Shown: piece after piece, positions 15,509 to 60,837 of the stretch
How positions within the stretch are numbered: position 1 is the first letter of the stretch
How the letters are laid out: each line of letters begins with the position of its first letter
Assembly (NCBI GenBank): GCA_965214705.1
Contig: OZ243972.1
Location: forward strand, 800,001-864,000
Origin: Alphaproteobacteria bacterium
GTDB lineage: Bacteria > Pseudomonadota > Alphaproteobacteria > UBA828
Direction: 5' to 3'
DNA length: 64,000 nt
Position numbers and translations under genes: made by a program
Notes under the pieces: model-generated
What the model saw: only the letters and a program-made list of their open reading frames with translations
Told to the model about the DNA's origin: nothing
The model's database searches: none

Positions 15509-16258
15509 ATGGCCGAGCTTGCCGACATCGCCAACGCGGTGATCCGCGACGAGATCGAGGAGTTTCTCGAGCGCCCGGACGAGATCGAGCGCAACGTCGC
15601 GCTGTTCGCGCGCGTGCGGCCCGAGATGCAGGACATCGCTGCCGCGTTGATCGAGGGCGACAATCACACGGTGGACGCGCTCACCGCCAAGGCCCTGGAG
15701 GAGGGCACCGAGGCGCTGGAGATCATGGACGATGGTTTGATCGCCGGCATGGGGATCGTCGGCATCAAGTTCCGCGAGAATTTCATCTTTGTGCCCGAGG
15801 TGCTGGCGTGCGCGCGTGCGATGAAGGCGGGCATGGCCCATATCGAGCCGATCCTGTCGGCCTCGGGCGTCGAGCCCATCGGCACCGTGATCATGGGCAC
15901 GGTCAAGGGCGACCTCCACGACATTGGCAAGAACCTCTGCATCATGATGCTTTCCGGCGCGGGCTTCGACGTGGTCGACCTTGGCGTGGACACGTCGGAA
16001 GACGAGTTTATTGCCGCGCTCGAGGAACACGGGGCGCCGATCATGGGCATGTCCGCGCTGCTCACGACGACGATGCCGAACATGGGCAAGACCATCGAGG
16101 CGCTGATCGACGCCGACATTCGCGACGACGTGATGGTAATGGTGGGGGGCGCGCCGGTGACCCAGGAGTTCGCCGACGACATGGGCGCCGACGGCTATGG
16201 CAAGGACGCGCTCTCCTGCGTGGCGCTCGCCAAGAAGCTGATGGAAGAGCGCGGTTAG
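15509..16258 (+). CDS. Corrinoid (B12-binding) methyl-carrier protein, MttC/MtbC-like
   Basis: FIFVPEVL cap domain, GTVKGDLHDIGKN (DxHxxG), MSALLTTTM, MVGGAPVT. Confidence 0.93.
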   Translation: MAELADIANAVIRDEIEEFLERPDEIERNVALFARVRPEMQDIAAALIEGDNHTVDALTAKALEEGTEALEIMDDGLIAGMGIVGIKFRENFIFVPEVLACARAMKAGMAHIEPILSASGVEPIGTVIMGTVKGDLHDIGKNLCIMMLSGAGFDVVDLGVDTSEDEFIAALEEHGAPIMGMSALLTTTMPNMGKTIEALIDADIRDDVMVMVGGAPVTQEFADDMGADGYGKDALSCVALAKKLMEERG

Positions 16259-16266
16259 GCCGGCCG

Positions 16267-43129: not shown

Positions 43130-43264
43130 ATGAGAACGCGGTACACCCCTTCAATCCGACTGCTGCCGCTCGGCGCCGGCCCGCGGCTGCTCGGGGCGGC
43201 CCTGATCGTTGCCGCGCTCTGGGGCGCGTTCTTCTGGGCGACGTCCACGCCGGGGGGGCCGTGA
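43130..43264 (+). CDS. Small (44 aa) single-TM protein preceding the Zn ABC ATPase
   Basis: MRTRYTPSIRLLPLGAGPRLLGAALIVAALWGAFFWATSTPGGP*; GGGGAG RBS; GTGA overlap with the next gene; below the ORF-track cutoff. Confidence 0.65.
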   Translation: MRTRYTPSIRLLPLGAGPRLLGAALIVAALWGAFFWATSTPGGP

Positions 43265-44004
43265 CCTACGCCCTCAAGTTTCAGGACCTGAGCCTCGGCT
43301 ACGACCGGCATCCGGCCGTGCATCGCCTGCACGGCGAGATCGCCGAGGGCAGCCTGACGGCCATCGTCGGACCCAACGGGGCCGGTAAATCCACGGTGCT
43401 GAAGGGGGTGACCGGCTCACTCCGCCCGCTCGAAGGACGGATCGCCTTCGGCGGGGTCGCGCGGGACGACATCGCCTACCTGCCGCAGCAATCGGACGTC
43501 GACCGGTCTTTCCCGATCGTAGTCTCCGACCTCGTGGCGATGGGCCTCTGGCGGGAGATCGGCGGCTTTGCGGGCTTGCGGGCCAGTCACCGCTCACGCG
43601 TCGCCGACGCAATTTCCGCGGTCGGCCTCGAAGGGTTCGAGAAGCGGCCGATCGGGTCGCTGTCGGGCGGGCAGTTACAGCGTGCGCTGTTTGCCCGCCT
43701 GCTGCTGCAGGACGCACGGCTCGTCCTGCTTGACGAGCCCTTCACGGCAATCGACGCGAGAACGGTGGCGGACCTGATCGGCGTGGTGCGGCGCTGGCAC
43801 GGCGAAGGCCGCACGGTGCTCGCCGTCTTGCACGACGTGGACACGGTACGGGCTCACTTCCCCCGCACGCTGATGCTGGCGCGCGAACTCGTCGCCCACG
43901 GACCCACGGCGCGGGTGCTGACGGCCGAGAACCAGTTCCGCGCGCGCCAGATGTGCGAGGCCTGCGTCGGCCCGCCGCATACTTGCGGGCGAAGCGCTGC
44001 ATGA
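43261..44004 (+). CDS. Zn/Mn ABC transporter ATP-binding protein (AztA/ZnuC-like)
   Basis: GPNGAGKST, YLPQ, LSGGQLQR, LDEPF, VLHD. Confidence 0.92.
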   Translation: MTYALKFQDLSLGYDRHPAVHRLHGEIAEGSLTAIVGPNGAGKSTVLKGVTGSLRPLEGRIAFGGVARDDIAYLPQQSDVDRSFPIVVSDLVAMGLWREIGGFAGLRASHRSRVADAISAVGLEGFEKRPIGSLSGGQLQRALFARLLLQDARLVLLDEPFTAIDARTVADLIGVVRRWHGEGRTVLAVLHDVDTVRAHFPRTLMLARELVAHGPTARVLTAENQFRARQMCEACVGPPHTCGRSAA

Positions 44005-44870
44005 TGTGGGAGCTCCTCGTCCAGCCCTTCGCCGATTTCGGCTTCATGCGGCGCGCGCTGATGGGCTGCATTGCGATCTCGGTCGGCGCGACACCGGTCG
44101 GGGTATTCCTGATGCTGCGCCGCATGAGCCTGACGGGCGACGCGATGGCCCATGCAATCCTGCCGGGTGCGGCAGTCGGGTTTCTCGTCTCGGGCCTCTC
44201 GCTGGGGGCGATGACCATCGGCGGGCTGATCGCAGGCATGGCCGTGGCGCTCCTCTCGGGCTTCGTGACCCGATTCACGGCGCTGCGCGAGGACGCGAGC
44301 CTGGCGGCCTTTTACCTGATCTCACTGGCGGTGGGCGTGCTGATCGTGTCCACCCGGGGCAGCAATGTCGACCTGATGCATGTGCTCTTCGGGACCGTGC
44401 TCGCGCTCGACGACGACGCCCTGACTCTGCTCTGTTCCATCGCGAGCATTTCGGTCTTCGCGCTCGCGGCCCTGTTCCGGCCGCTCGTGCTCGAATGCGC
44501 GGATCCGCAGTTCCTGCGCTCGGTGAGCGGGCTCAGCGCCATGACGCATTTCGCGTTTCTTGCTCTCGTCGTGCTCAACCTCGTGGCCGGCTTTCACGCG
44601 CTCGGCACGCTGATGGCCGTCGGCATCATGATCCTTCCCGCCGCCGCCGCGCGGTTCTGGGCCGTCGGCATCGGCGCCCTGATCGCCGTCGCGGTCTCGG
44701 TCGCGATGCTCTCGAGCCTGAGCGGCCTTCTGCTCTCCTACCACTTCAGCCTGCCCTCCGGGCCGGCGATCATTCTTGTCGCGGGTCTCGCCTACGCGCT
44801 GTCGCTGGTCTTCGGACCGGTGGGCGGTCTCGCCGGGCGGGCCTTCCCGCGTCGCCATCTCGAAGCCTGA
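44001..44870 (+). CDS. Zn/Mn ABC transporter permease (AztB/ZnuB-like)
   Basis: LRRMSLTGDAMAHAILPG, HVLFG, LPSGPAI. Confidence 0.92.
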   Translation: MMWELLVQPFADFGFMRRALMGCIAISVGATPVGVFLMLRRMSLTGDAMAHAILPGAAVGFLVSGLSLGAMTIGGLIAGMAVALLSGFVTRFTALREDASLAAFYLISLAVGVLIVSTRGSNVDLMHVLFGTVLALDDDALTLLCSIASISVFALAALFRPLVLECADPQFLRSVSGLSAMTHFAFLALVVLNLVAGFHALGTLMAVGIMILPAAAARFWAVGIGALIAVAVSVAMLSSLSGLLLSYHFSLPSGPAIILVAGLAYALSLVFGPVGGLAGRAFPRRHLEA

Positions 44871-44881
44871 AAGGAGTATCA

Positions 44882-45964
44882 ATGCTCACCCGCAGAACGC
44901 TTCTGATATCCGCCACCGCCCTCTTCGCCCTGTCGCTCGCCGCTCCGGCCATCGCAGAGACCGACAAACCGACCCCGGTGGTCGCCACCTTCTCGATCCT
45001 CGGCGACATGGTGAAGCGGATCGGCGGAGAGCACGTCGCTCTCACGACGCTCGTGGGCCCCGACGGGGATACGCATGTCTACCAGCCGACCCCCGCCGAT
45101 GCGCGGGCCCTCAGCGAAGCGAGGATCCTTGTCGTCAACGGGCTGCAGTTCGAAGGCTGGCTGGACCGTCTGATCGACGCTTCGGACTTTCGCGGTATCC
45201 GGGTGGTGGCGACCGACGGCATCGAGCCGATCGCGTTCGACGATGAGCACGGTCACGATGACGACCACGAAGAGCATGCGGAGGAGGTCGGGCATGACCA
45301 CGATCACGATGACCAGGCCGAGGTCGATCATGATGATGAGCACGAGGAGCATGCCGAGACGGCGATGCACGATCATGACGACGACCACGATGACGAGGCG
45401 CATGCCGAGGCAGGCCACGACCACCATGACCATGGCGCTTTCGACCCGCACGGCTGGCAGAGCCTCGGCAACGCCGTAGCCTATGTCGACAACATCACTG
45501 CCGCTCTGGCTCAGGCCGATCCGGCGAACGCGGCCGACTTCTACCAAAGCCGCGCAGCTTATGTCGCCGAGATCGAGGCGCTCGATGCAGAGATCCGCGA
45601 GATCATGGCAGCCCTGTCGGCCGATCGCCGCATCGTCGTCACCTCGCACGACGCGTTCCAGTATTTCGGCGGCGATTATGGGCTGACCTTCATCGCGCCG
45701 CAGGGGCTCAGCACCGAGTCGGAGGCATCCGCAAAGGATGTCGCCCGCCTCATCCAACAGATCCGTGAGCGGGGCATTCGTGCCGTCTTCATCGAGAACA
45801 TTGGCGATAGGCGCCTGCTCGAGCAGATCGCCAACGAGACCGGGGCCACCATCGGCGGCACGCTCTATCCCGGTGCGCTGTCCGGCCCGGACGGTCCGGC
45901 ACCGACCTACCTCGACATGATGCGGCACAACGCGACGACGCTCGCGCAGGCGCTGGCTTCGTAA
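44882..45964 (+). CDS. Cluster A-I metal (Zn) solute-binding protein with long His/Asp-rich loop
   Basis: VVATFSILGD, DTHVYQPT, DPHGW, TSHDAF, His-rich insert. Confidence 0.92.
   Translation: MLTRRTLLISATALFALSLAAPAIAETDKPTPVVATFSILGDMVKRIGGEHVALTTLVGPDGDTHVYQPTPADARALSEARILVVNGLQFEGWLDRLIDASDFRGIRVVATDGIEPIAFDDEHGHDDDHEEHAEEVGHDHDHDDQAEVDHDDEHEEHAETAMHDHDDDHDDEAHAEAGHDHHDHGAFDPHGWQSLGNAVAYVDNITAALAQADPANAADFYQSRAAYVAEIEALDAEIREIMAALSADRRIVVTSHDAFQYFGGDYGLTFIAPQGLSTESEASAKDVARLIQQIRERGIRAVFIENIGDRRLLEQIANETGATIGGTLYPGALSGPDGPAPTYLDMMRHNATTLAQALAS
45241..45435 (+). repeat. Low-complexity His/Asp/Glu repeat coding segment
   Basis: GAC/CAC/GAT/CAT-rich; HEEHAE occurs twice; about 18 His by manual count. 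Confidence 0.8.
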
Positions 45965-46141
45965 GGTTTGGCGCACAGCCTTCGAAAGCCGGGACGCCGG
46001 ACTTCCAGGGACGAGAGGGACAGGTCGGCACACCACGCATGAGGTCGTGTCCCGAACAGCGCTTTCAGCCAGCATCTACGAACGGAGTAGAGGCCGCTGG
46101 GTGCGACTGAACGACTTCAAAGATTGAAGGAGACGGAATCC

Positions 46142-47098
46142 ATGAACCAGATCCCCGTTACCGTTCTGACCGGCTATCTCGGCGCCGGCAAGACAACGCT
46201 CCTGAACCGCATCCTGACCGAGGAGCACGGCAAGAAATACGCCGTGGTCGTCAACGAGTTCGGCGAAATCGGCATCGACAACGACCTCGTGGTCAACGCC
46301 GACGAGGAAGTGTTCGAGATGAACAACGGTTGCATCTGCTGCACCGTACGCGGGGATCTGATTCGCATCCTTGGCGGTTTGATGAAACGGCAAGACGGCT
46401 TCGATGGAATCCTCATCGAGACCACGGGCCTTGCCGATCCCGCGCCCGTCGCCCAGACCTTCTTCGTGGACGAAGACGTTCGGCGACGGACCTGGCTCGA
46501 TTCGATCGTAACGGTGGTCGACGCCCGCCATGTCGTCCGGCGGCTGGAAGACAGCCATGAGGCGCTGGAACAGATTGCCTTTGCCGACGTCATCCTTCTC
46601 AACAAGACGGATCTTGTGCCGGCCGATGAGCTGGCGCAGGTGGAAACGCGCATCCGTTCGATCAATGCGACGGCGGCTATCCATCGCACACAGCGATGCG
46701 AGGTGGGTCTCGACACGGTTCTGGGGCGCCGAGCCTTCGATCTTGATCGCATCCTGGCGATCGAGCCGGACTTTCTTTCGGAAGACGACCATGAACACGA
46801 CGATGCCGTGAAGAGCGTCTGCCTGCGCACCGACCGGCCGTTGGACGGAACCCGCCTCACAGGGTGGTTGCAGCGCCTACTCGCCGAGCGTGGTCAAGAC
46901 TTTCTGCGAACCAAAGGGATCCTGTCGATCGCCGGTCAGGACAAGCAGTTTGTCGTCCAGGCGGTCCATATGCTGATGGAGGGTAATTTCACGAAGCCGT
47001 GGAGCCCTAACGAGAAACGAGAGAGTCGCTTGGTCTTCATCGGACGAAACATCGATGAGCTGGAGCTGCGTCAGCAGTTCGACGCCTGCATCGCATGA
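46142..47098 (+). CDS. COG0523/CobW family GTPase (metallochaperone)
   Basis: GYLGAGKTT, NEFGE, GCICC, ETTGLADP, NKTD, CobW_C region. Confidence 0.92.
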   Translation: MNQIPVTVLTGYLGAGKTTLLNRILTEEHGKKYAVVVNEFGEIGIDNDLVVNADEEVFEMNNGCICCTVRGDLIRILGGLMKRQDGFDGILIETTGLADPAPVAQTFFVDEDVRRRTWLDSIVTVVDARHVVRRLEDSHEALEQIAFADVILLNKTDLVPADELAQVETRIRSINATAAIHRTQRCEVGLDTVLGRRAFDLDRILAIEPDFLSEDDHEHDDAVKSVCLRTDRPLDGTRLTGWLQRLLAERGQDFLRTKGILSIAGQDKQFVVQAVHMLMEGNFTKPWSPNEKRESRLVFIGRNIDELELRQQFDACIA

Positions 47099-48150
47099 GC
47101 TTGTCCGCTGAGCTGGACAAGACGTCGCTGCTCGATCGTATCGGCACCGGCCGCTCGCTCGACGCTTATGTGGTGGGCGTTGCGTTCCTTGAGGAGGGAT
47201 TGCTCGCGGCTGCACTCGGGGACGGTCGGGTCGCGTTCATCGACAGCGAGAGCACGAATCCTCCCTCCTTCGTTTCGGTGCACGACGGGGCTTGTCTGTC
47301 GCTGGCCGTCGACTTGGGGCAGCAGCGCGTTCTGACGGGCGGAGACGACGCTCGGCTGGTGAGCACCGATACCGACGGCGAGACCACCGAAATCGCAGCC
47401 ATTGCGGGGCGATGGGTCGAGCCGATTGCCGTGAGCAGGGCATCCGGACTATGCGCTGCGGTCTTCGGCAAGACAGTTTCCCTTTTCGCGCAAGATGGAA
47501 GAGCGGTTGGAGCGTTCGATCATGCGAACACGGTCGGCGGTCTGGCATTCGACCCGAAAGGGCGGCGGATCGCTGCCGCGCACTACGGTGGAGTCAGCCT
47601 CTGGTGGGCGAAGCCCAGCACGCAGAAACCCAAACGACTCAGCTGGTCGGGTTCGCACCTTAGTCTGACCTGGAGCCCGGACGGGAAATACATCGTCACC
47701 GCAATGCAGGAGAACTTGCTGCACGGTTGGCGTATCTCCGACAGCGCCGATATGCAGATGCCTGGCTACCCGACGAAGGTCAAGTCGATGAGCTGGCTGC
47801 CGAAGGGAAGGTATCTGGCGACCGCCGGCGCGGAGTCCGTGGTTTGTTGGCCATTCCACGGCAAGGGCGGCCCACTGGGCAAGGCGGCGCTCGACCTCGG
47901 GTGGGGCTTCGAGGGTGTGGTGACGGTGGTGGCTGCCCACCCCCGGCATGACGTTGTCGCCGCCGGATACGAGGACGGTGCCACCATCCTCGTGCAGATC
48001 GACCGCGATCATCCGGTTGTGGTCAAGCGACCCGGCAAGGGCGCTGTGACCGCACTCGCCTGGTCGGCAGATGGGCAGCATCTCGCACTCGGTACCGAGA
48101 GCAGCTTTGTCGGCCGAATTAGCCTTTCCGACTGGCGGACTCCATCATGA
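47095..48150 (+). CDS. WD40 repeat protein (typical CobW neighbour)
   Basis: TGGDD, WSPDGKYIVTAMQEN.LHGWR, M.GYP.KVKS, WPF.GK.GP. Confidence 0.85.
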   Translation: MSLSAELDKTSLLDRIGTGRSLDAYVVGVAFLEEGLLAAALGDGRVAFIDSESTNPPSFVSVHDGACLSLAVDLGQQRVLTGGDDARLVSTDTDGETTEIAAIAGRWVEPIAVSRASGLCAAVFGKTVSLFAQDGRAVGAFDHANTVGGLAFDPKGRRIAAAHYGGVSLWWAKPSTQKPKRLSWSGSHLSLTWSPDGKYIVTAMQENLLHGWRISDSADMQMPGYPTKVKSMSWLPKGRYLATAGAESVVCWPFHGKGGPLGKAALDLGWGFEGVVTVVAAHPRHDVVAAGYEDGATILVQIDRDHPVVVKRPGKGAVTALAWSADGQHLALGTESSFVGRISLSDWRTPS

Positions 48151-48184
48151 GCGCGAACAGAGGAACTCCAATCGAGGTTCTTCC

Positions 48185-48394
48185 ATGAAACGGAGGGCAA
48201 AACGCGCGCAATCCCCATGCATCGACGTCTGCCGACTCGACCCGAAGACGGGGTGGTGCCTGGGCTGTGGCAGGACCGCCGCCGAGATCGGAGAATGGCG
48301 CAAGCTCACACCGTTCCGCCGAGGCCGGCTTGAACGGGAATTCGCGCGGCGCCTGGTGAAGCTCGGACAGCGCACGCCATTGGAACACGAATGA
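48185..48394 (+). CDS. DUF1289 family small Cys-rich protein
   Basis: SPCIDVCRLD....WCLGCGRT..EI..W. Confidence 0.85.
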   Translation: MKRRAKRAQSPCIDVCRLDPKTGWCLGCGRTAAEIGEWRKLTPFRRGRLEREFARRLVKLGQRTPLEHE

Positions 48395-48509
48395 AACGGT
48401 TGGCGATCACTATTCACGATCCATGAACCCAGTTTCTGGCGGTTTTTGTGTGCGAGGCGTACCCCGGAGATAGCGATCTCAGAAGTGCCGATTTGGGTCG
48501 GGCTCGTTG

Positions 48510-48701
48510 GGCCGAAGGAGGATTCGAGAGCGCCGCCCGCGCCGGCCATCCGGCCGCGACGCTGTGCCCCGCGAGGACGAGGCGCGCGCGGCCGACGAGC
48601 TCGATCTGCTGCCGGACGGGTCTGCCATCGCCGAGATGCTGGGCGACCATGCGGTGATTCGGGAGCAGGCTCGGGCGTGCGCTGATCACAAGACCAGGTA
48701 G
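48510..48701 (+). pseudogene. Possible prophage small-protein remnant (lysis-cassette type)
   Basis: TLCP in one frame, then ARAADELDLLPDGSAIAEMLGDHAVIREQARAC in another; resembles small alphaproteobacterial prophage proteins from memory. Confidence 0.3.
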
Positions 48702-48722
48702 AGCCAGCAAGCCCGCATCGGC

Positions 48723-49142
48723 TCAGGAGAAGGAAGTCTGGCCCTCTATCAATTCGTGGGTGCAATCGAGCGGCGGAATACGCGCAAGGATGCCGCTTCG
48801 CATGCTCGGGGGCCGCTTGTTACGCTCCACGAACCCATCGCTTCGCGACAGCCACATCCGGACTGCTACGAGAATATCGTCGACGTGGCGTGCCGGATCC
48901 AGGTCGCCGAACAGGTATGTGAATCGGTCGCGATGAGAGAACGCAATAACGCAGGGGCGCAAACACTGACTCATGCAGCGTACGCGGCGCAGATTGAAAG
49001 GTGGCGGCAAAACTGCACCAAATAGGGACTGTTGCAATGCACTCGCCAGCACCGCGCCAGGGCGCTGGCGGTTTGCAGTGTCTGGCCAGCCCTGCGGTCG
49101 ACAGCGCGTGCATACCGAAATGGTCGGTAGCTCAATAATCAT
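48723..49142 (-). CDS. DUF1636 family metal-binding protein
   Basis: VCTRCR, CMSQCLRPC.IAF, YLFGDL, RP..MR.GILARIPP. Confidence 0.85.
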   Translation of the reverse strand: MIIELPTISVCTRCRPQGWPDTANRQRPGAVLASALQQSLFGAVLPPPFNLRRVRCMSQCLRPCVIAFSHRDRFTYLFGDLDPARHVDDILVAVRMWLSRSDGFVERNKRPPSMRSGILARIPPLDCTHELIEGQTSFS

Positions 49143-49852
49143 GATAGCGGCGTCTCGTGTTCGACCCCTCTCGGCCACGGCTCCGGAGATGCGTCCGATC
49201 GCTTGTTGAGGGAGAGCAGCAATCGCGTGCAGCCAGTGCCCGCGATGGGCGGCGAGCGGTGCACGATTCCGCTGCCTGGTCCGGCGCAGTTTCCCTTGAA
49301 TATCGCCACGTCGTTGCCACGGATGTGCTCTAGCGGCCCTTTGAACCGCTTCTGTGCGCGCAACGCCCGCTCGGCGTGGATCGATTGGACCCACTCGGTG
49401 CCGGGACCGCGGTACGTTGTCAGGAGGCGCGCCTCCACGTAGTCCCGGTGGAACTTCCAGCAGGAATCGTGGCTGACGCGCGCCAGCCTTACATCAACGA
49501 GATCACTCCGGGCGATGCCAGCAAAAGCCGAGACGAGATCATCGACGTCCCCGACCAGCAGGTCGCGCATGTCTCCGGCAGGCATACCAATTTCGTCCAA
49601 ATGCGGTTCCACCGCACGTCGAAGGTCGCCGGGCCGGACAAGAATACGCAGGTCGGGAAGACACGAAGCATCCATTCGGTCGAGCCATGTCTGCAGGCAC
49701 ATGGGAAGCGCGCGCCGCCAGATCACGAGCTCCATGTTGGGCTTGTTAATGGCGGCGAGGCCTTCCGCTGCGTCGCACGTCGCGATGCCCACGCCCAACG
49801 TGGCGGAGGTCCTAACGGACTCACCTTCCAGGGATACCGACGGAACGGTCAT
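49139..49852 (-). CDS. DUF1826 domain protein
   Basis: LVIWRR, CWKFHRD....[20 protein letters not shown]....RLLL. Confidence 0.88.
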
Positions 49853-51081
49853 GACGGCTCGGCCCGCTTCCAGACCGGGAATGGATCCTTGAGCTTTTTC
49901 CAGGCAGCAGGCTGCATGGCTTTGGCGTTGGCATCGCCGACAAGGCAGGCGTCGAGCCGGCGTCGGATCGCGGCCTCGTCCATGTCGGTGCCGATGAAGA
50001 CGATTTCCTGGTGGCGGTCTCCGTAGACGGGATCCCAGGATTTGGCGATGTTCCGACGCCATTCCGGGTGATCGGGCCAATGTTCCTTGGGGGCGTTCGC
50101 CCACCAGAAGCCCACGGCCCTATGGCGGACAAGCGCGCCGGCCTGGCTCAACTCGCCGACCCATTCAGGACGGTTGGCCAACCAGAAGCGCCCCTTGGCA
50201 CGAATGACCCCCGGCCACGACGAGTTGATGAAGGCGTGGAATTTCTCGGGATGAAAGGGACGGCGTGCCTGATACACGAAGCTGCGCACCCCATACTCCT
50301 CGGTCTCCGGCTTGTGCTCGGCGAAGCCGTATAGCTCCTTGAACCAAAGCGGGTGTTCCTGAGCCTTGTCATGGTCGAACCGGCCGGTGTTCAGCACCTT
50401 GTCCAGCGACACACGGGACATGCTGGTCTCGATGAGTTCCGCATCGGTGTTGAGCGACCGGATGATCTTGCGCGCGGCATCGAGCTGTTCGGGCCTTGCC
50501 GCATCGATCTTGTTCAGAATGATGACGTCGGCGAATTCGATCTGATCGACGAGCAGATTGACCAGCGCGCGGTTGTCGTCCTCGCCCAGCGCCTCGCCCC
50601 GGTCCTTGAGGAAATCGGTTGATGCGTAGTCGCGCAGGAGGTTTGCGGCATCGACCACGGTCACCATCGTATCGAGGCGCGAGACATCCTCCAGGCTCTC
50701 GCCCTCTTCCGTCCGGAAGTTGAAGGTGGCCGCTACGGGCAGCGGCTCGGAAATGCCGGTCGATTCGATGAGAAGGTAGTCGAACCGGCCATCCTGAGCG
50801 AGCCGACGCACCTCCTTGAGAAGGTCATCGCGCAACGTGCAGCAGATGCAGCCATTGGTCATTTCGACCAGAGTCTCTTCGGTGTGGCTCAGATCTGCGC
50901 CGCCGTCGCGGATGAGATCGGCGTCGATGTTCACCTCGCTCATGTCGTTGACGATGACCGCGACGCGCTTGCCTTCGCGGTTGTTAAGGATGTGGTTCAT
51001 CAGCGTGGTCTTGCCGGCGCCAAGGAAGCCGGAAAGTACGGTGACGGGCAGAATGGGTCGTTCCAGGGGCTGGGTTGTCAT
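49849..51081 (-). CDS. zigA: Zinc metallochaperone GTPase (COG0523, ZigA/YciC-like)
   Basis: [57 protein letters not shown]. Confidence 0.9.
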
Positions 51082-51153
51082 GGCAATTCTTCAGAGCGTG
51101 ATTGCGACGTCGGGGGCGCTGGGTGCGAGCGCCGCCTGGCTCGTTGGAGACCC

Positions 51154-51657
51154 TCAAAGCTGCGTCGGATTCGGCGCGTCACCGTAGACGTCCTTTGGAT
51201 CAAAGGACCTCCGTGACTCCGCGAACACGAGTCGAACAGGTCCACCAGAAGGGCCGCCGAGCTCAACCGACCGGTAGAAGCAGGAACGGTATCCGACGTG
51301 ACAACTGGCGCCCGAACCGGCGACCCGGACGCGCAGCCAGACGGCGTCCTGGTCGTCGTCGATGCGCATCTCGACAACCTCTTGGACGAGGCCGCTGGTT
51401 GCGCCCTTGCGCCAAAGGCACTGGCGGCTTCGGCTCCAGTAGTGCGCTTCGCCGGTCGCGATCGTTCGCTGCAGAGCCTCACCATTCATGTAGCCCAGCA
51501 TCAACACTTCGCCCGTGTTGGCGTCGGTCGTGATGCAGGGGAGCAGTCCGTCGGCATCGAACTTGGGTGCCAAGGCGAGGCCTTCCTCGACCTGCTCGAC
51601 CGTCGTCCGGGCAGCGAAGGCGGCGACGGCTGCTGGAACGGATTTGTCAGGAGCCAT
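51154..51657 (-). CDS. hisI: Phosphoribosyl-AMP cyclohydrolase
   Basis: [36 protein letters not shown]. Confidence 0.92.
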
Positions 51658-52300
51658 TGGAGCCGCTTCGGGGGCTTCCGATCATCGCGAGAAACTCCCG
51701 GCGGGTCGCCGGGTCGTCGCGAAAGGAGCCGAGCATGCGGCTGGTCACCATGCTGACACCCGGCTTGCGAATCCCGCGCGTGGTCATGCATTGGTGCGCC
51801 GCCTCGATGACGACACCGACACCGCGCGGCTTCAGCACCTCCTGTAAGGTATCCGCGATCTGCGACGTCAGCGCCTCCTGGATCTGCATCCGCTTGGCGA
51901 GCACCTCGACAAGGCGCGCAAGCTTGGAAATCCCGACGATGCGGCCCGCCGGCAGGTAACCGATATGCGCCTTACCCAGGATGGGAACCATGTGGTGCTC
52001 GCAGTGCGATTCGAGGCGGATGTCGCGCAAGACGATCATCTCGTCGTAGGCGGCGGTCTCCTCGAACGTCGTCGCAAGCAGCGCGACCGGATCTTCGTTG
52101 TATCCGGCGAAGAACTCCTCATAGGCCCGCACCACGCGCGCGGGCGTGCCTGCGAGGCCTTCGCGGTCGGGGTCGTCGCCCGTCCATTCGATCAGCGTCC
52201 GCACCGCCGCTTCCGCCTCGGACCGGCTGGGCCGTCGGCGCCCGCCCGAGCCGGTGAACACTGATTCTGTGGGCCGGCTTCCGACCACCGCTGTGTCCAT
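51647..52300 (-). CDS. folE: GTP cyclohydrolase I (type IA)
   Basis: [34 protein letters not shown]. Confidence 0.95.
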
Positions 52301-52347
52301 GTCAAACCCTTTCCGGCGGCCACGCCCGGCTCTTGAGTAACTTCTCT

Positions 52348-53772
52348 CTAAGCCGTTGACATAGAGGCATTTGTGTTTTTGTTGTCGTCGTCGATCTCGA
52401 CCAGTTGGAAGCCGAGCTTCTTGGCCTGTCGACGGAGCGAAGAGAACTTTCGGTCCAGGCGTCGGCTCTCGTAGACCTCCATCCCCTTCTCGGCATATTG
52501 CTGGCCGCGGGTCACCATCAGGTAGATCAGGCAGGCGAGTTCTCGGGCGGTGGCGACAACGGCTACGCTGGTGTCCATCCGGGCGAGGCGGCTGCGGTGC
52601 TTGGCGCCGATGAAGGTTTGGCTGGTGCGAGCGGTCATGGCCGCCATGCGCAGTGCCTGGCCAACGCGGTTGACCACCTTGGGCCCCCGGCCCGGCAACG
52701 GTTTGCCGCCGCTGATCCTGGTCCCAGGCGCCAGCCCCAGCCAGGAACTGAAGTGCTGTGCGGAGGGAAAGGCGGAGAAGTCAGGACCGATCTCGGCGGC
52801 GATCACCAGGGCAGTGTTGACGCCGACGGTGGGGATTGCGGTGAGATCGACCCCCATCATCTTATGCAGCGCCATAGCCATGGCCTTATCCTGCCCGCGG
52901 AGCGCCCTGCCGCTGCTGCTTGGGGTCTCGTTCGACGCCGTGCCCGATGATCCGACACTGGGAGTGTCCTCGGGCGTACCCTCATCCGTCGGATCGTCCG
53001 GCGGGGTCAGGTGCTCAACCTCCGCCATGATCCGCGCCTCGCAGTCCGCGATCTGCTGCTCCAGAAAGTCGTAGCGCTGCATCGCCTGCTCAAGCGCGAA
53101 CAGGTGCTCCTCGCGCCAAGTGCCCTCCAGGCTCGCGGCAATCGTGTCGGCGCTGGCCTTGATCCGCCTGTCGCGAAGCGACGCCAGCCGCCCGGGGTCG
53201 CGCTCGCCGGCGATGATCGCCCGCAGGATGCGCTCACCCGTCTTCCCCATGATATCGCTGATCACCGAGTCCAGACGCACGTTCATCTGGGTCAGCGCCT
53301 TCTGCATATGCAGCACGCAGCGAGAGCGGTCCTCGATCAACTGCTTCGCCTGGCGCATGAAGGAGCGCAACGGGCAGATCGCGTCGCCCGGCCGGAAGGC
53401 GCCGCGCAGAAGGCCGTAGGACATCAGCTGCCAGATCCACTGGCAGTCCAGCACATCGCTCTTGCGCCCGCCGATCTGCTTCGTCATCCGGGGCGGCACA
53501 AGCATCACCTCGAAGCCGGCTCGATCCAGGACCTCGTAAACCGGGATCCAGTAGACCGAGGTCGACTCCATCGCCACCTTCGTCACACCGCACGACTTCA
53601 GCCACTCGGCCATCGCATCCAGGTCGCGCGTGAACGCGCCGAACTCCCTCACCGGTTCCTCGGCTCGCTCCGGATCCACCGCCACGAAGTGCCGGTCCTT
53701 GCCGATGTCGATCCCGGCGCAATTCGGGTGCACTACCTTGAGGCGCTGCCTCCTTCTCCGCTTGCGCGCCAT
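52348..53772 (-). CDS. IS110-family DEDD recombinase/transposase
   Basis: [35 protein letters not shown]. Confidence 0.93.
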
Positions 53773-54015
53773 CGAGAGCCCCCCCAAACTCCGTTGACGT
53801 TGCGGGTGGGGAGGAACCGCGGCGAAGTCTCAATCTCTTGAACGAGGTCACGGGCGAACCCGCGCCATCAGTGACAGAAGCCGATCACGGTTCGGGCCAA
53901 GCTTCCAAACGGGTGCCCTCGCACGCCACTGAAGGGACGGCCTCGTCTGCCCTACCCGCTACCACTTCACGCTTCAACCGTCGAAGACTCAACCCCAGTC
54001 GAAGACTCTACCCCC
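53773..54015 (-). ncRNA. Candidate IS110 bridge/seek RNA region
   Basis: Non-coding IS end containing TCAAGAG (minus strand, 53835-53841), identical to the other IS end plus core; structure not computed. Confidence 0.4.
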
Positions 54016-54093
54016 AGTTACTTCAGCGACTGAGCCGCTGCGCCGCAGTGGTGGTGGCTTCCAAGGGGGGCTGGGCGCTTGCAATCGATCAAC

Positions 54094-54111
54094 GCAACGT
54101 TATAGCGTTGC
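54094..54111. promoter_or_regulatory. Putative Zur box for the folE-hisI-zigA operon
   Basis: Palindrome GCAACG-TTATAG-CGTTGC shares the AACGTTATA core with the 40317 box; it would lie about 90 nt from the folE start in the empty site. Confidence 0.6.
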
Positions 54112-54357
54112 ATACTCAAAGCGCAATAGAGATCAAGCCGATGACGCTCCCGTCGACCCAGCCTCGGCACTGCACCGTGTTGTTAAGCACGCTTTGTTGA
54201 CCCCCCACAATCCGGCCAGATCAATGGGTTACTGCGCCGATCGGCACCGAACCCGTACGCCAATCAACAAACTGACTGACCACGCCACTCAAACCGCCCC
54301 TCTGAAAGTGGTTATCACCCAAATCCACATAAGAGCGCTGGCTGACGGTCGTGCAAC

Positions 54358-55389
54358 TCAGTCGGGCTTGCGGGCAAGGAAGCAATAGAGCGGAGTGAAT
54401 ATGCCCAATTTGCCGCCCGCGACATAGGCGTTCGCCGTGCGGTCCATCAGTTGGACAACGGCCGCTGAACCATTGGGAAAGAGCCGGAGCACCTCCGCCA
54501 TCCGCAGACCCGCGAATATCGCCCTGCGACCCAAGGGCGTCCTGCGAAAAGCGTTGCCCAATGTCCCGCTCCGGCCTTCCATTGGCCGATGCCACGGTAT
54601 GCCCTGGCCTTCCCTGTCGTCCCTGTTCGCTGCTTCGATGACGTCGAAGCCCGCAGCCTCAAGCGCGCGATTCACCTCCGAGAACGTGGCGATCTCTTTC
54701 AGGGCAATTCCCCGCTTGAGTTCATCCTTGATAGTGCGGTGACGGCTGTCGCTGGGGTCAAACTTTTCCGTCATGCACATCTCCTGACCCCACAGCAGGG
54801 CTCCCGGTTTGAGCACACGATATATCTCCGCAAACGCGCGCTCCTTGTCCGGCGCGTGGCAGGTCGACTCGATGGCATAACCCGCATCGAACGAGTTGGC
54901 CTCAATCGCACTCATATCCATGAAGTTGCATTTGATATACTCCGCCATATCGTCGAGCCCCGTCTCGATATTCCTCCGCTTGGCCTGTTCCAACTGCTGT
55001 TCGTTATTGTTGAGGCCGACAACCCTGGTGCCGCCTTCGCGGATGACCCGCCGCATGGGACCGCCCACGCCGCAGCCGACATCGACAACCACCATGCCCT
55101 CTCGTAATTCCAGCTTCTCGATCATCAGACGCTGATGGCGAACGACCGAGTCCTCCAGAGATTCCTCGCGCGTCAATGGCGCGAAATGCAGGGACTCGCC
55201 CCACCCGAATTGCATGATTCCGCTGCACAGCTCGTAGTAATCGTTCACCGTCTCGGTGAAGTCATAATCGCCGTCATCGGCATCGGCCCGCTCCATTCTG
55301 TCGAATCGATCACCGAAGCGTGCTACACGACCTCTGACGTCCCGGACTTGGTAAAGGATCCGCAGGTATCTGGACAAACTTGCTAACAT
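54358..55389 (-). CDS. Sterol C24-methyltransferase-like SAM-dependent methyltransferase (ERG6/SMT family)
   Basis: VNDYY....GWGESLHFAP, VDVGCGVGGP, GLNNN..Q, AIESTCHAP, EIYRVLKPG, AGGKLGIFTP.Y..ARKP. Confidence 0.88.
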   Translation of the reverse strand: MLASLSRYLRILYQVRDVRGRVARFGDRFDRMERADADDGDYDFTETVNDYYELCSGIMQFGWGESLHFAPLTREESLEDSVVRHQRLMIEKLELREGMVVVDVGCGVGGPMRRVIREGGTRVVGLNNNEQQLEQAKRRNIETGLDDMAEYIKCNFMDMSAIEANSFDAGYAIESTCHAPDKERAFAEIYRVLKPGALLWGQEMCMTEKFDPSDSRHRTIKDELKRGIALKEIATFSEVNRALEAAGFDVIEAANRDDREGQGIPWHRPMEGRSGTLGNAFRRTPLGRRAIFAGLRMAEVLRLFPNGSAAVVQLMDRTANAYVAGGKLGIFTPLYCFLARKPD

Positions 55390-55825
55390 GTGCTGCCTCG
55401 TTTATTGTCCATCTCGCAGTTTAGCTCTTTGGTAGCGGATGGCAACGACGCCGGAAGCATTTGCTAGTCTTACAGCGGCTTGTCTCCACATCACAAGGGA
55501 GGGATCCAGGCGAGGGGAGGCGCCCTTCGCCGCCGGCACCGGGGAAAAAACTAAGCGAAGCCGGTTGACGGCTGGTGCCGGGACCATCGACATGGCCCTG
55601 CTGTCGGGCTCATGCGCCGTCCATTTCGCTGACGAACTCAACGGTCGTTTCATTACACTAAAGGCGCCGAGCACGGGCCACTAGCAATGCAGGGGCCGTC
55701 GAGGCGACCCCAAAGACGTGACGGGTGGCGAAAACCGGGCTAAATTTCGCGCGACATGGTGAGAGGGGGCGCTTGTCTGGGAACGATCGGCCCCCATCTC
55801 AGCTCTTATGGGAGGCCTTGGCCCG

Positions 55826-57613
55826 ATGCCCGACTCGGCCGCTACGGCCCAAGAGCTGCGTCTGCCCGAGGAGCTTATCCTGATGCTCCTCAACGAGCAG
55901 AACGGCTATTTCCACCAGGTCCCCGGCTGGAATCTGAACTGCGCGGTGGTGGGCGCGGTGCTCGCGGAACTCTCCCTGCTCTCGCGCATTGACACTGATC
56001 TCGATTCGCTGATCCTCGCCGATTCAGCGGAGACAGGCGATCCGGTGCTCGATCCCGTCCTAAAGGAAATCGCCGGGGAGTCCGTTCAACGGGACGCCGT
56101 GTACTGGATCGAACGGCTTGCCAGCAAGGCGGAGTCGATCATCGACCACACCCTCGAACGCTTGGTCGAGCTGAAGATCCTGGAGCATCACGACGGCGAT
56201 TTCTGGACGCTGGCCGCCGCGACGTGGCGCGAGGAGTTGTCCGGTGGTTCCCAGGAAGGCACCGTTGGCCAGTTCGTAAAAACGCGTGTCCTCAAGGCGC
56301 TCTTCACCGAAGAGATTCCCGACCCCAGGGACATCATCGTCATCTGCCTCGTCAATACGTGCGACGTCTTTCGCTTCATGTTCGAAATCGACGACGAGAC
56401 CCAAGAGCGGATCGATTTCATTTGCCGGATGGATTTGATCGGCCGTTCCATCGCCGCCGCGGTCGAGCACAACATCTCCAGCCCGTCGCTGCGGCCTTCG
56501 GCGCTGACTAAGAAAATACCCGTCGTCCCCCTGCACAAGCTCTTGCTGAACCCGCGTCTTCGGGGCGGCAACATCGCCGCCATTTTCGCGCACATCGCGG
56601 AAGAACACGGTCCGGTTTTCCAAATCCGTCCTCCGTTCCAGGAACCCACGACCTTCCTCGCCGGGCCCCAAGTCAACCGTTGGATACACCGGAACGGGCG
56701 CATGTATCTGCGGTCCAGGGACTATTTCACCGACATCGAGAAGGTTTATGGCGCGTCCGGGGTGATTGCCTCGCTCGACGGGGCCGACCATTTTCAACTG
56801 CGCAAGGCGATGCAGCCGGGCACTTCCCGCGGGAGGCTGGAGGATCGACTGCATGACCTCTACGGCCATGCTCGCGCGTTTATGGCGGACTGGAATGTGG
56901 GATCGTCGCTGCCGGCGACCAGCATGTGCCGACTGATGATCAACGCGCAGATATCCCCGCTGGTCATCAGCATTGATTCACAGGACTTCGTGGAGGACCT
57001 GATCAGATTCAAAGAGCGCGCGCTCACCACCCACGTGGCCAAAGTTCTGCCCAAGTTCATGCTGAACACCCCATCGATGAAACGTGCGTCAAGGGCCATC
57101 GACGTCGGGGTACAGCGGATCCTGGGCCTCCACACGCCCGCCCAGCGGGTCGGTTGCCCGCGGGATCTCGCCGACGACCTGCTCAGCCTCCACGCCAGTG
57201 ACCCGCAGTTCCTGCCCGAATCGAACCTGGCCTTCGCTCTTTCGACGCCCATGCTGGCTAGCATGTATCTGGGAGACGCGTTCGGCTGCGCGCTCTACGC
57301 CATGGCGTCGCAGCCTACGCTCTACGAACGGATCCGTGCCGAAGCCGACGCCCTCTTCGAGAACGGCGATCCGGATGCCAAGGACTTCGCCGACGAGTCC
57401 ATCGACGTTACGCGGCGCTTCATCTTGGAATGCCTGCGCATGTACCCCATCGTGCCCGCGTCCATCCGCAACGTCATGAATTCATGCGTTGTCGAGGGCC
57501 ACGAGCTGCCCGTGGGGGCGCGCATCGCCATCGCCTCGACGGCGCCGCATTACATGAGCGACGTCTTCCCGGACCCCTTCACATTCGACATCGACCGCTA
57601 TCTGCCGCCGCGT
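55826..57613 (+). pseudogene. GPP34/GOLPH3 domain-cytochrome P450 fusion, 3' truncated (no heme-Cys motif)
   Basis: N-terminal LPEELILMLL...GAVLAEL....RID...TGDPVLD (GPP34); C-terminal ECLR (ExxR) and FDIDRY; the sequence switches to ISAs1 DNA before FxxGxxxC. Confidence 0.8.
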
Positions 57614-58980
57614 GCGCGCCCCGGTCGAGCAGGTAGCGGGCGAACTTGCGCTGGGTTAGCAGCGCGTCCGTCGTGACCGTCTTGCCCGCGATGTTCGGGA
57701 TCAGGTCCACCAGCGCCGTCACGGTGCCGATCTCGTTGGTGCGCTTTGTCTCCTCGTCGGCCCCGACTTTCAGGAGAAGTTTTTTTGGGCGAGCGTGGCC
57801 TTGGTCTCGTGCCCGACCGCGCTCATGACATGAGCCTGGGTCCCGTCCTCGTCGATGGCCCCCCTCAGGGTCTTGCCGTCGATGGCAAGCGCCGCGTCGC
57901 CTGAGCCGTGGGCCTCCTGCCACTTGCGCAACGCCTCGTCCAACTGGTCCGGGTCCACCCGGATCACCACATTGCGGATGGTCGACATCGAAGGCGGCCG
58001 GCGCACCCCGTCGCGCAGCCGCACGCCGAAGCGGGCCAGCGCCTTCTCGCCGAGATCGTCGACCCACTCGGAGATGGCCTTCCAGCCTCGCATGCCGCAG
58101 AGCGTCGCGCCACTCGCAAGCGCGAGCACGCTGGGCAGCGAATGCCGCCGTCCCTTGCGCGTGCGGGGGTCGTCGATGTCCTTGAAGTAGGCGTAGAGCG
58201 ACTCTTGCTGAGCGGCGCTGATCATGGTTCTCGGAACTCCTTTCTTCCACAACTCCCGATCCAGCCCGGCAGCGGACAGCCGGCGGCAGGCGTCGGGAAC
58301 CAGGGGGCGCAGCAGCACAAGCTTCGGCGTCGAGCCGGCGACATAGCCCGAGCGGTGGCGCCGGAAGCCGCGGGTCTGGCCGACCGCCAGCCATCCAGCC
58401 GCCCGGTAGACCGTGCCCCGGAACCTCGCCGCGTCCACGAATGTTTCCAGCATCAGCACGGGGTGGCCGAAGCGGGCCGGCCAGTCGCGCGCCAAGCGCC
58501 GCGCGCAAAGCCCCAGCACCCGCGAGCCGAGGTTCGGAACACCCCGTCCCGGCAGGATCAGGAAGCGCGCGTTGTTCGCGATCAGATGCAGCCGCCCGTG
58601 CTGCGTGCGGAAGTCCCAGCCGATCCACTCGTCCCGCGCCCGGCACTTGCGCGCCGCAGCCGAAAACACGGCCAGCGCCAGCCACTCGCCGCGCCGATGG
58701 GCGACGTACCACGCCGTCGCCCCCACCTTCGCAGACGCACCCAGGTAGTGATGCCCCTCCATCAGCGCGCGGAACCGGGCCTCGTCCTCCGGCCGGACAG
58801 CAGCGACATCGACCTCGGAAAGATCCACCGTAGAAACCGTCCCCCTGCTCGAAGCCGATCCGCAGCAGAACACCGCGAATCCAGTCGCCTCAATCCATAG
58901 CAGGGTTGGCGCGCGCTGACCAGACCCAAGGTCAACTCGTAGCGCAGAACTCAAAATCAGGCTTGGACAAATTCGCCCTG
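57612..58980 (-). mobile_element. Truncated ISAs1-family element (DUF4338 + transposase, -1 frameshift site)
   Basis: HHYLG, NNARFLIL, LETFVD (DUF4338); DPR..KG.RH, AIDGKTLRG, NEI, TTDALLTQ; slippery A-AAA-AAC at 57779-57786; CAGGG end at 58980; 3' half missing. Confidence 0.8.
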
Positions 58981-59302
58981 CCGTCGGCCCCATGGCGGCT
59001 TGACTGGCCGCACGTAATGCAGAACCCTGCTGCCATGTTGATCCTCAGCGCTCCCACCGGTCGCAGGGACGGCAGAGGCAGGTATGACACTGGCGCCTCT
59101 TGCGCAGCGAACGCGTCGGCGGAAAGGTACGCTGAGTCACATCCTTCAAGCCAAGTACCGACCTCGCTGACGTTGCACGGTGTCAGCCAAGAACGGTGGA
59201 GAGGACACAAACGTAGTGCCATAATCCAGGGCCGAGAATAATTTAACGCCGCCTTTTCAACAACTTGGACCTCGCGCTCGGACTAAAATGGCGAAGATGG
59301 GT

Positions 59303-60311: not shown

Positions 60312-60837
60312 TTAGAGAGCAATCGCAGCCAAGAACATTATGCCGCCTTCGACGCGCTGTTGGATGGTCTGAAGCTTGGCGAAACCGTGCTTCCCGGCCG
60401 CACCGTGAGTTGCCTCGTTGAAGATGTGGAACAGCTGAAGAATGTCGTCGATATCCTTTTCGACGAACCCGAGTATTTCTGGCGAATCGACACCCTTCCG
60501 CTTCAGCAGGTAGCGAATCTTGGCGCGGCGCGATGGCCCAGTTCTATTGGGCGTAAGCTCGCAGTTAGGGTCGGCTTCCAAGACATCCTCGTTGTCCGCC
60601 CATTTGTCGAGAATCTCCGTGAAAACCTCTCGCGCACTGGTGCAGAAGTGCCGCCCGGCGTCCGGATTATCCGGATTGAGGGAAAAGAGCGCCCCACGCC
60701 AGCGGTCGCAAAGGTCCTGAGAGAACCCAGATAAGTACTCCAGGATTCCGGAGTCCTGAACGCTTTCGGAAACCTTTGTCTGTTCCACAATGAGGGCTTC
60801 AGCCACCGCCGCACTGTTGCTAGCTTCCTTCTCCGAC
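60312..60837 (-). pseudogene. Predicted pPIWI-associating nuclease-like protein, 5' truncated by IS
   Basis: RWRGALFSLNPDNPDAGRHFCTSARE...RRAKIRY...FNEATHG; the frame runs into the IS end at 60838; lower GC. Confidence 0.6.

Follow-up and report, generated by a model that had tools for sequence, protein, structure and literature searches.

A broken GPP34-P450 fusion beside a sterol methyltransferase-family gene: probable remnant of a tailoring cassette of sponge-associated bacteria

The 64,000-nt stretch of contig OZ243972.1 analysed here (the window), from an alphaproteobacterium of the UBA828 lineage, carries two divergently oriented genes, one encoding a member of the sterol methyltransferase (SMT) family and the other fusing a GPP34-like domain to a truncated cytochrome P450 (Table 1; coordinates are positions within the window unless another contig is named). 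The pair was the subject of an earlier reading of the sequence, the original prediction, whose observation of an SMT gene divergent from a broken GPP34-P450 fusion is confirmed. As had been claimed, the SMT gene is intact, and its length equals that of its many relatives. Its product has a class I S-adenosylmethionine methyltransferase domain (Methyltransf_11, 2.5e-19, amino acids (aa) 102-199) followed by Sterol_MT_C (2.1e-16; 60.2 bits against a cut-off of 21.7; aa 280-342), the combination that marks the SMT/ERG6 family, and Sterol_MT_C is precomputed in 120 of the 120 relatives listed for it. Region I reads MQFGWGESLHF, with its Phe tentatively placed by eye at position 83; Phe at positions 81 and/or 83 of this region has been linked with propylation (preprint 10.64898/2025.12.19.695621). 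A search of the Protein Data Bank (PDB) returned no solved SMT structure.

The open reading frame (ORF) of the fusion runs from 55808 to 57676 on the plus strand, and the start Met of intact relatives lies at 55826. The gap between the two genes, estimated earlier at about 440 bp, is 418 bp to the first ATG and 436 bp to the Met used by the relatives, and it contains a sigma-70-like site on the minus strand (55445..55418; 0.1 expected in shuffled sequences; a consensus match only). Pfam recognizes GPP34 at aa 19-220 (1.6e-27; 97.3 bits, cut-off 29.1). Its p450 match extends over aa 251-603 and takes in only profile positions 18-393 of 462. With Sterol_MT_C all three profiles with which the original prediction proposed to search are recovered. 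No cyclase or epoxidase was found by Pfam among 45 ORFs of the window, in agreement with the earlier remark that it holds no sterol biosynthesis genes; the other scanned ORFs are housekeeping or mobile genes, none of them a sterol enzyme.

Table 1. Features of the pair, its flanks and related genes of the same genome
Feature	Position	Strand	Basis
SMT-family gene, intact, clade A member	54358..55389	-	ORF 343 aa; Pfam; SMT tree
Divergent intergenic region, SMT / fusion	55390..55825	.	ORF ends and start Met of intact relatives
GPP34-P450 fusion ("GPP34_L"), truncated pseudogene	55826..57612	+	Pfam; alignment with intact relatives
GPP34 domain of fusion	about 55862-56467	+	Pfam
P450 domain of fusion	about 56558-57610	+	Pfam
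1,369-bp insertion sequence abutting cut P450	57612..58980	-	blastn against genome; Pfam
IS110-family transposase, flanks pair on SMT side	52348..53787	-	Pfam
Squalene epoxidase-oxidosqualene cyclase (SE-OSC) fusion, 1,152 aa	L019:12631-16089, contig C3	-	genome ORF
Stand-alone P450, intact C-terminus	C1:1113360-1114589 (L020:8193-9788)	-	34% identical to P450 domain of fusion

The P450 copy is indeed broken, as stated in the original prediction. In an alignment that includes 11 intact relatives (670-676 aa), the fusion diverges after RYLPPR (aa ~601), where the 1,369-bp insertion sequence (IS) cuts it, and it lacks the heme-cysteine loop and C-terminus, that is, the last ~72 codons; in the family as a whole the heme-ligand Cys is invariant in 53 of 53 alignment rows. 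The missing codons were found nowhere else in the 7.92-Mb genome (three contigs). Identity of the DNA to a related locus, L025 (98.8% identical, with an SMT copy 99% identical to that of the window), stops at position 57612. A contig from sequencing run X1 crosses the junction without a difference, and the break is therefore not an assembly slip of this record alone, while contigs from X12, a sponge metagenome of another study, continue past 57606 into the heme-loop codons and represent an intact allele. Together, these observations establish that the break is real and strain-level. The fusion is also intact, at 99% identity, in two congeneric genomes.

Blastn located about 20 further copies of the IS in the genome at 99.6-100% identity, all starting at the same base, and the resulting set of ~21 near-identical copies indicates a recent burst. 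Likewise, the 21-aa read-through tail of the cut fusion has 18 further matches in the genome. The ORF of the IS (57770..58993) contains a DruA-like N-terminal region and a DDE_Tnp_1_assoc domain, with no Pfam match to a DDE catalytic domain. On the SMT side, the flanking transposase matches DEDD_Tnp_IS110 (4.5e-23) and Transposase_20 (3.2e-12). The loss of the P450 end to an IS fits a genome that is larger, at 7.9 Mb with 8.7% estimated contamination, than 20 congeneric genomes (2.8-6.3 Mb) and full of recent IS copies. RNA-library contigs from run X20, labelled coral metagenome, resemble parts of the fusion and the 3' end of the SMT gene at 90-99%, with carry-over of DNA being possible; expression was considered on this basis and is not counted, these being contigs only.

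Relatives of the fusion were gathered by a word-indexed search (the best 120, 68-99% identical, all with both domains and most 654-704 aa long) and by an exhaustive search (400 representatives at E <= 1e-30, including several dozen full-length fusions at 26-55% identity). Their surroundings were taken from a scan of species-representative genomes (409 relatives, 76 loci kept) and one of JGI metagenomes (68 loci), with ORFs called and clustered and the clusters named with Pfam. The fusion ORF itself is present at 73 genome and 64 metagenome loci (137 in all), many of the metagenome contigs being short. One locus, L160, is missing from alignment A3, its coordinates having run into a stop codon.

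The expectation that intact GPP34-P450 genes would be found next to SMT genes in other genomes is borne out across eight phyla. By tblastn, a close relative of the window SMT occurs at 43 of the 76 related genome loci. An SMT gene is a neighbour of the fusion at 42 of 73 genome and 21 of 64 metagenome loci, and is its immediate neighbour at 36 genome loci (in four orientations or sides) and 17 metagenome loci. On the same two denominators, the other recurrent neighbours are a Rieske oxygenase with a KshA_C domain (51 and 25), an MMPL transporter with Sterol-sensing and Patched matches (42 and 23), a flavin-dependent, amine-oxidase-like protein (31 and 10), an ERG4/24 reductase (6 and 3), and an SE-OSC fusion (5 and 2). 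At least one of these six neighbour types is present at 68 of 73 genome and 49 of 64 metagenome loci. The commonest order, with arrowheads for direction, is oxidoreductase>, <Rieske, fusion>, <SMT, <transporter, and what lies outside it varies from locus to locus. The pairing of fusion and SMT occurs far more often than by chance.

The SMTs linked to the fusion form a lineage of their own. A tree of 72 SMTs splits into clades A and B at a support of 100, and the window SMT belongs to clade A. Of the 59 rows in clade A, 52 are adjacent to a fusion, four come from loci without a called fusion ORF, and three lie further off. Clade B (13 rows) includes the copies beside SE-OSC genes, and one of its members is adjacent to a fusion. 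Within the genus of the window organism (21 genomes), ten genomes carry a fusion of the window clade and eight a clade A SMT; seven of these eight also have the fusion, the two genes being adjacent or within ~2 kb in four and far apart in three. Contig JGIcombinedJ30088_10000835, which encodes the propylating enzyme of Brown et al., is not among the 68 metagenome loci.

The carriers appear to be bacteria that live with sponges. All titled relatives are metagenome-assembled genomes (MAGs), some with sponge-derived taxon names, and the window stretch is present in runs of nine studies whose labels include "sponge metagenome" and "coral metagenome". In a FastTree phylogeny, 72 fusion rows from eight named phyla, 60-70% identical, are interleaved: Gemmatimonadota fall inside Chloroflexota, a Nitrospirota row lies amid Pseudomonadota, and Pseudomonadota appear in two places. 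The SE-OSC and oxidoreductase genes are 73-79% identical between the window alphaproteobacterium and copies from Nitrospirales or Dehalococcoidia. The interleaved phyla and these cross-phylum identities point to transfer of cassette genes between sponge bacteria.

The source of sterols in the carriers was addressed with an SE-OSC search of the whole genomes behind 48 of the 76 genome loci, hand-picked for long contigs (28 were left out). A full-length SE-OSC (64-98% identity) is present in 9 of the 48 carrier genomes, of several phyla and including that of the window organism, with one copy containing an internal TAG. A further 16 gave only 25-36% matches to the cyclase half, and 23 gave no match at E <= 1e-20. 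Where the oxidosqualene cyclase (OSC) of the window genome has DCTAE, 15 of the 16 weakly matching cyclases have DxDD in the alignment (the sixteenth was read in the wrong frame); these are taken here to be the motifs of oxidosqualene and hopene cyclases, respectively. Most of the carriers searched thus seem unable to make sterols, with the proviso that MAGs are incomplete, although many of these are chromosome-scale.

The window organism, in turn, probably makes sterols itself, to judge from a cluster on contig C3 and from related genes on contig C1, and its sterol genes are scattered. On C3, an SMT paralogue, an SE-OSC fusion, a P450, an ERG4/24-family reductase and a Rieske/VanA_C oxygenase are encoded side by side, and a 3-beta-HSD-like gene follows ~4 kb beyond, past an IS91-type transposase and an integrase. 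Elsewhere, C1 encodes an ERG4/24-like reductase with 72% identity to cassette genes of other phyla and a flavin oxidoreductase with 79%. The cassette-type Rieske gene is absent from the window, and its best copy in the genome reaches 29% identity. A fused SE-OSC is already implicit in print, since the PMC10070321 supplement lists ERG1 and ERG7 under one gene id for several of its clusters.

The proposal that the pair acts on host or dietary sterols is therefore upheld in one part and not in another. The lack of an OSC in 39 of 48 carriers fits action on host-derived sterols; however, the window genome has its own de novo cluster, and the substrate here therefore need not be a host sterol.

Both halves of the pair have published relatives. 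GPP34_L, a family of GPP34 proteins joined to a P450 (656 of 663 long forms), was reported as exclusive to sponge symbionts of many phyla (PMC11706023, Microbiome 2025), in a survey that also covered GPP34-Rieske fusions and P450 genes near short GPP34 genes. The present fusions share its two-domain architecture, sponge habitat, phylum range and size class (620-700 aa in the supplement), with the window copy as a truncated member. Similarly, SMTs of sponge symbionts, with the same Methyltransf_11 and Sterol_MT_C domains and from the same habitat, have been shown to alkylate sterols in vitro (PMC10070321, Nat Commun 2023). The clade B SMT on C3, beside its SE-OSC, P450, ERG4/24-family and SdmA-like Rieske genes, resembles the clusters of that study, whereas the window SMT is only 45% identical to it, belongs to the separate clade, and is tied to a GPP34-P450 gene instead of a cyclase. 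Horizontally transferred steroid gene clusters with ERG24, CYP51 and lanosterol synthase are known from sponge MAGs of about ten phyla (PMC9531527, Microbiome 2022); the C3 cluster is of this kind. Those clusters hold the core pathway; the genes of the present cassette are accessory to it and occur mainly where it is lacking. The accessible texts of PMC10070321 and of the preprint mention neither P450 nor GPP34 neighbours, that of PMC9531527 does not mention GPP34, and literature searches on GPP34 with sterol and sponge, or with P450 fusion, found no paper linking them. The original designation of an undescribed system must accordingly be narrowed: the fusion and the symbiont SMTs are each published, and it is their linkage that is new, as far as searchable texts show.

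Building on what is observed, namely the family-level identities of the genes, the break, the conserved linkage and the distribution, the window pair is best read as what is left, after decay, of a cassette for tailoring sterols (or triterpenoids) that has spread horizontally among sponge-associated bacteria, a reading to which a probability of roughly 0.65 is given. It is suggested by the company of a clade A SMT, a steroid-type Rieske enzyme, a transporter with a sterol-sensing-type domain, an occasional ERG4/24 reductase and SE-OSC, and a GPP34 domain fused to a P450 (or Rieske). For the substrate, the reactions and the role of GPP34, we infer the following scheme. A full cassette would comprise the flavin oxidoreductase, the KshA-like Rieske oxygenase, the GPP34-P450, the clade A SMT and the MMPL-type RND transporter with its sterol-sensing-like domain. 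Cells with an SE-OSC cluster, such as the window organism, would supply their own sterols; cells without one, the majority of the carriers searched, would take them up from the host. The transporter would move these sterols, the SMT would alkylate their side chains, and the P450 and Rieske enzymes would carry out oxidation or rearrangement. GPP34 may serve as a fixed, non-catalytic module of the P450 for membrane docking or lipid hand-over, a stand-in for the anchor that eukaryotic P450s have in the membrane. In the window strain, the IS has removed the heme-binding end and with it the P450 step, and the SMT probably still acts on products of the genome's own sterol cluster. The original interpretation is in this respect partly supported, with its prediction of co-occurrence holding strongly.

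Sequence comparison of the neighbours is consistent with steroid-like substrates. The Rieske oxygenase has 3-ketosteroid 9-alpha-hydroxylases as its best full-length solved relatives (1.7e-26; PDB 4qdf and 2zyl; Pfam KshA_C 1.5e-17), and the transporter matches Sterol-sensing (7.6e-10) and Patched (5.6e-11). KshA differs in serving steroid breakdown together with KstD and Hsa genes, whereas no such cluster is shared by at least three of the 76 genome loci. Steroid catabolism, considered as a role for the cassette, was rejected on the same absence of a common ring-cleavage cluster and on the anabolic nature of SMTs.

The P450 is harder to accommodate. The domain has CYP51 of Methylococcus capsulatus as its best sequence match (3.3e-17), and CYP51 is also its top fold match (PDB 6mcw/7jj1; TM 0.81 on the target), with P450 BM3 scoring alike. 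P450 families are named at about 40% identity. The fusion domain is only ~20% identical to the CYP51 structures and 20% to the separate P450 of the C3 cluster. The I-helix acid-alcohol pair of P450s (Asp/Glu-Thr) serves oxygen activation, and the SMT-linked fusion clade lacks this acid-threonine pair, with Tyr where most P450s have Thr. The motif reads A-(S/A/G)-x-Y-(L/V/M)-G-D, with a one-residue gap, in 124 of 126 locus fusions and A-S-x-Y-L-G-D in the window clade (residues ~475-490 of the intact 673-aa relative P0001, which is 99% identical; about 57240-57290 in the window). In the 53-row alignment, 32 rows have Thr in this column and 15 have Tyr, Thr being that of the more distant fusion subfamilies. 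The substitution hints at unusual oxygen chemistry. The suggestion of C22 desaturation of the CYP61/CYP710 type consequently finds no support, given that the nearest solved structure is a CYP51 at ~20% identity and the I-helix is atypical; CYP61 and CYP710 were not compared directly.

Several points weigh against a sterol-tailoring cassette. By sequence and fold, no sterol P450 family accommodates the P450, and the window copy is dead, leaving the module as such non-working here. No SMT lies within about 8 kb at 31 of 73 genome loci, and the loci are mutually related and spread as a block, such that the counts overstate the number of independent events. The correlation between pairwise distances of the fusion and of its adjacent SMT (r 0.65, 51 loci) would be expected from shared history alone. 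Among the cassette proteins, the flavin oxidoreductase looks like an LkcE-type amine oxidase; no cassette gene reaches an NCBIfam cut-off, and no equivalog is assigned. Several SMT homologues from metagenomes are reported to show no activity with desmosterol or 24-methylenecholesterol (PMC10070321). Finally, the tendency of the transporter and Rieske genes to accompany OSC-less genomes is a weak trend and suggestive only: the transporter occurs in 1 of 9 OSC genomes against 20 of 39 OSC-less ones (p 0.058), and the Rieske gene in 3 of 9 against 30 of 39 (p 0.018), with kin not being independent in either comparison.

SMT-like squalene methyltransferases are known from a green alga, and one alternative is that the cassette tailors a bacterial non-sterol isoprenoid such as squalene, hopanoids or another polyprenoid, with the SMT as a triterpene methyltransferase and the transporter as an HpnN-like exporter. 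A hopene-cyclase-type gene is present in 16 of the 39 OSC-less carriers, the transporter matches HpnN models, albeit weakly (4.2e-26, far below cut-off, with BstA at only 1.1e-07), and the inactivity of some SMT homologues on both sterols tested would be explained. Nevertheless, 23 of 48 carriers have no match at all to the cyclase query, a cyclase linked to the cassette is always an SE-OSC fusion and never a hopene cyclase, Sterol_MT_C is well above its cut-off in the window SMT and universal among its listed relatives, and the Rieske neighbour is nearest to steroid-nucleus hydroxylases. A non-sterol triterpenoid is a real alternative as substrate, albeit an unlikely one.

Slightly less probable still is the published proposal that GPP34 proteins, GPP34-P450 included, bind phosphatidylinositol 4-phosphate (PI4P) of the host, block phagosome maturation and so interfere with phagocytosis (PMC11706023), which would make the SMT an incidental neighbour. 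The N-terminal domain is indeed a true GPP34 (GOLPH3/Vps74) fold, as the original prediction had it. Beyond the Pfam match, a profile of 19 sequences finds GOLPH3 (2.2e-14) and Vps74 (2.2e-10) in the PDB. When aa 1-231 are modelled alone (pLDDT 83), the fold matches GOLPH3 at Z 17.4 (3kn1; root-mean-square deviation 2.7 A over 191 residues) and Vps74 at 17.2 (2zih), with the next chain at 5.1. The restriction of the long form to sponge symbionts, the sponge names and labels of its carriers, and the lack of a full-length fusion in all 40 genomes searched outside the genus of the window organism would likewise suit a role in the host. The PI4P pocket of human GOLPH3, in contrast, includes W81, R90, R171 and R174 (Wood et al., PMC2806290), and in distant, weak HMMER alignments, which are not final, R90 faces Ala, Val or Ile, R174 faces Ile or Val, and the segment of 10 residues containing R171 has no counterpart in the bacterial family; a Trp does occur within two positions of W81. 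Moreover, the AlphaFold model of the whole fusion is one confident body (pLDDT 89.6, pTM 0.87), joining GPP34 to a heme enzyme that needs cytoplasmic assembly. Aligned starts show no hydrophobic, signal-like N-terminus (by eye only), and the conserved neighbours are lipid enzymes and a transporter. The words "sterol" and "methyltransferase" do not occur in the accessible main text of PMC11706023, nor "sterol" in its readable supplement, which excludes the PDF of the flanking-gene figure. The PI4P/phagocytosis reading is weakened by these observations. With regard to GPP34 as a membrane-targeting or lipid-presenting domain, targeting through PI4P is doubtful, the pocket being mostly not conserved, while more general docking may still apply.

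Very improbable is an adjacency devoid of functional meaning, in which two genes merely travel together on a mobile island: the window pair does lie between insertion sequences, the genes have spread between phyla and the loci are not independent, but the adjacent SMT occurs in four gene orders, it belongs to a dedicated clade, the flanks outside the cassette differ by locus, and both genes are kept though unlinked in three of seven co-carrying congeners.

Several observations lie beside the main subject. Two fusion ORFs occur side by side or close together at loci L056, L062, L070, L118 and L144, possibly as tandem duplicates or split genes, and distant fusion subfamilies (L157, L158) are found beside AcrB/HlyD efflux genes with no SMT next to them. 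The window genome also has three stand-alone GPP34 genes (L003-L005), and its stand-alone P450 on C1 is kept in nearly all congeners, with luciferase-like monooxygenase and SDR genes as neighbours. At window positions 43261-52300, genes for an ABC ATPase, ZnuA, two CobW-family GTPases, a HisI-like PRA-CH and GTP cyclohydrolase I form a zinc-economy-like cluster with a WD40-repeat protein in its middle (47095-48150), and the related locus L025 lacks ~5.8 kb (48430-54269) overlapping this stretch. Finally, an ORF with a predicted pPIWI-associating nuclease domain (2.1e-37) lies amid transposase fragments at 60312-60806 on the minus strand, and 15808-18261 on the plus strand encodes a protein of the corrinoid-activation type (817 aa) with the middle and C-terminal (ASKHA) domains of RACo.

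The copy in the window is a decayed example and matters only as a pointer to the cassette. For GPP34_L, the most striking of the families reported as exclusive to sponge symbionts, the cassette provides a testable alternative function and named partners. The published reading is one of escape from phagocytosis by the host through PI4P binding. The linkage, together with the sterol-flavoured surroundings, suggests instead that the fusion takes part in remodelling lipids. It is possible, although the odds are against so far-reaching a version, that bacteria of at least eight phyla, unable to make sterols and sharing the sterol-sensing-type transporter, the clade A SMT, the GPP34-P450 and the KshA-like oxygenase, take up sponge sterols, alkylate and oxidise them and return them, such that symbionts would co-author the unusual sterols of sponges that serve as animal biomarkers. 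GPP34 would then be a lipid-handling partner and not a PI4P effector, and the Tyr-bearing P450 would catalyse a reaction other than ordinary hydroxylation.

Side-chain-alkylated steranes (24-isopropylcholestane and related compounds) are interpreted as the earliest chemical record of animals, an interpretation that hinges on which organisms produce the parent sterols in sponges. If it is true that a cassette with its own SMT clade has spread through sponge bacteria unable to synthesize sterols, symbionts could remodel the sterols of their host, a route that lies outside the argument over de novo bacterial synthesis.

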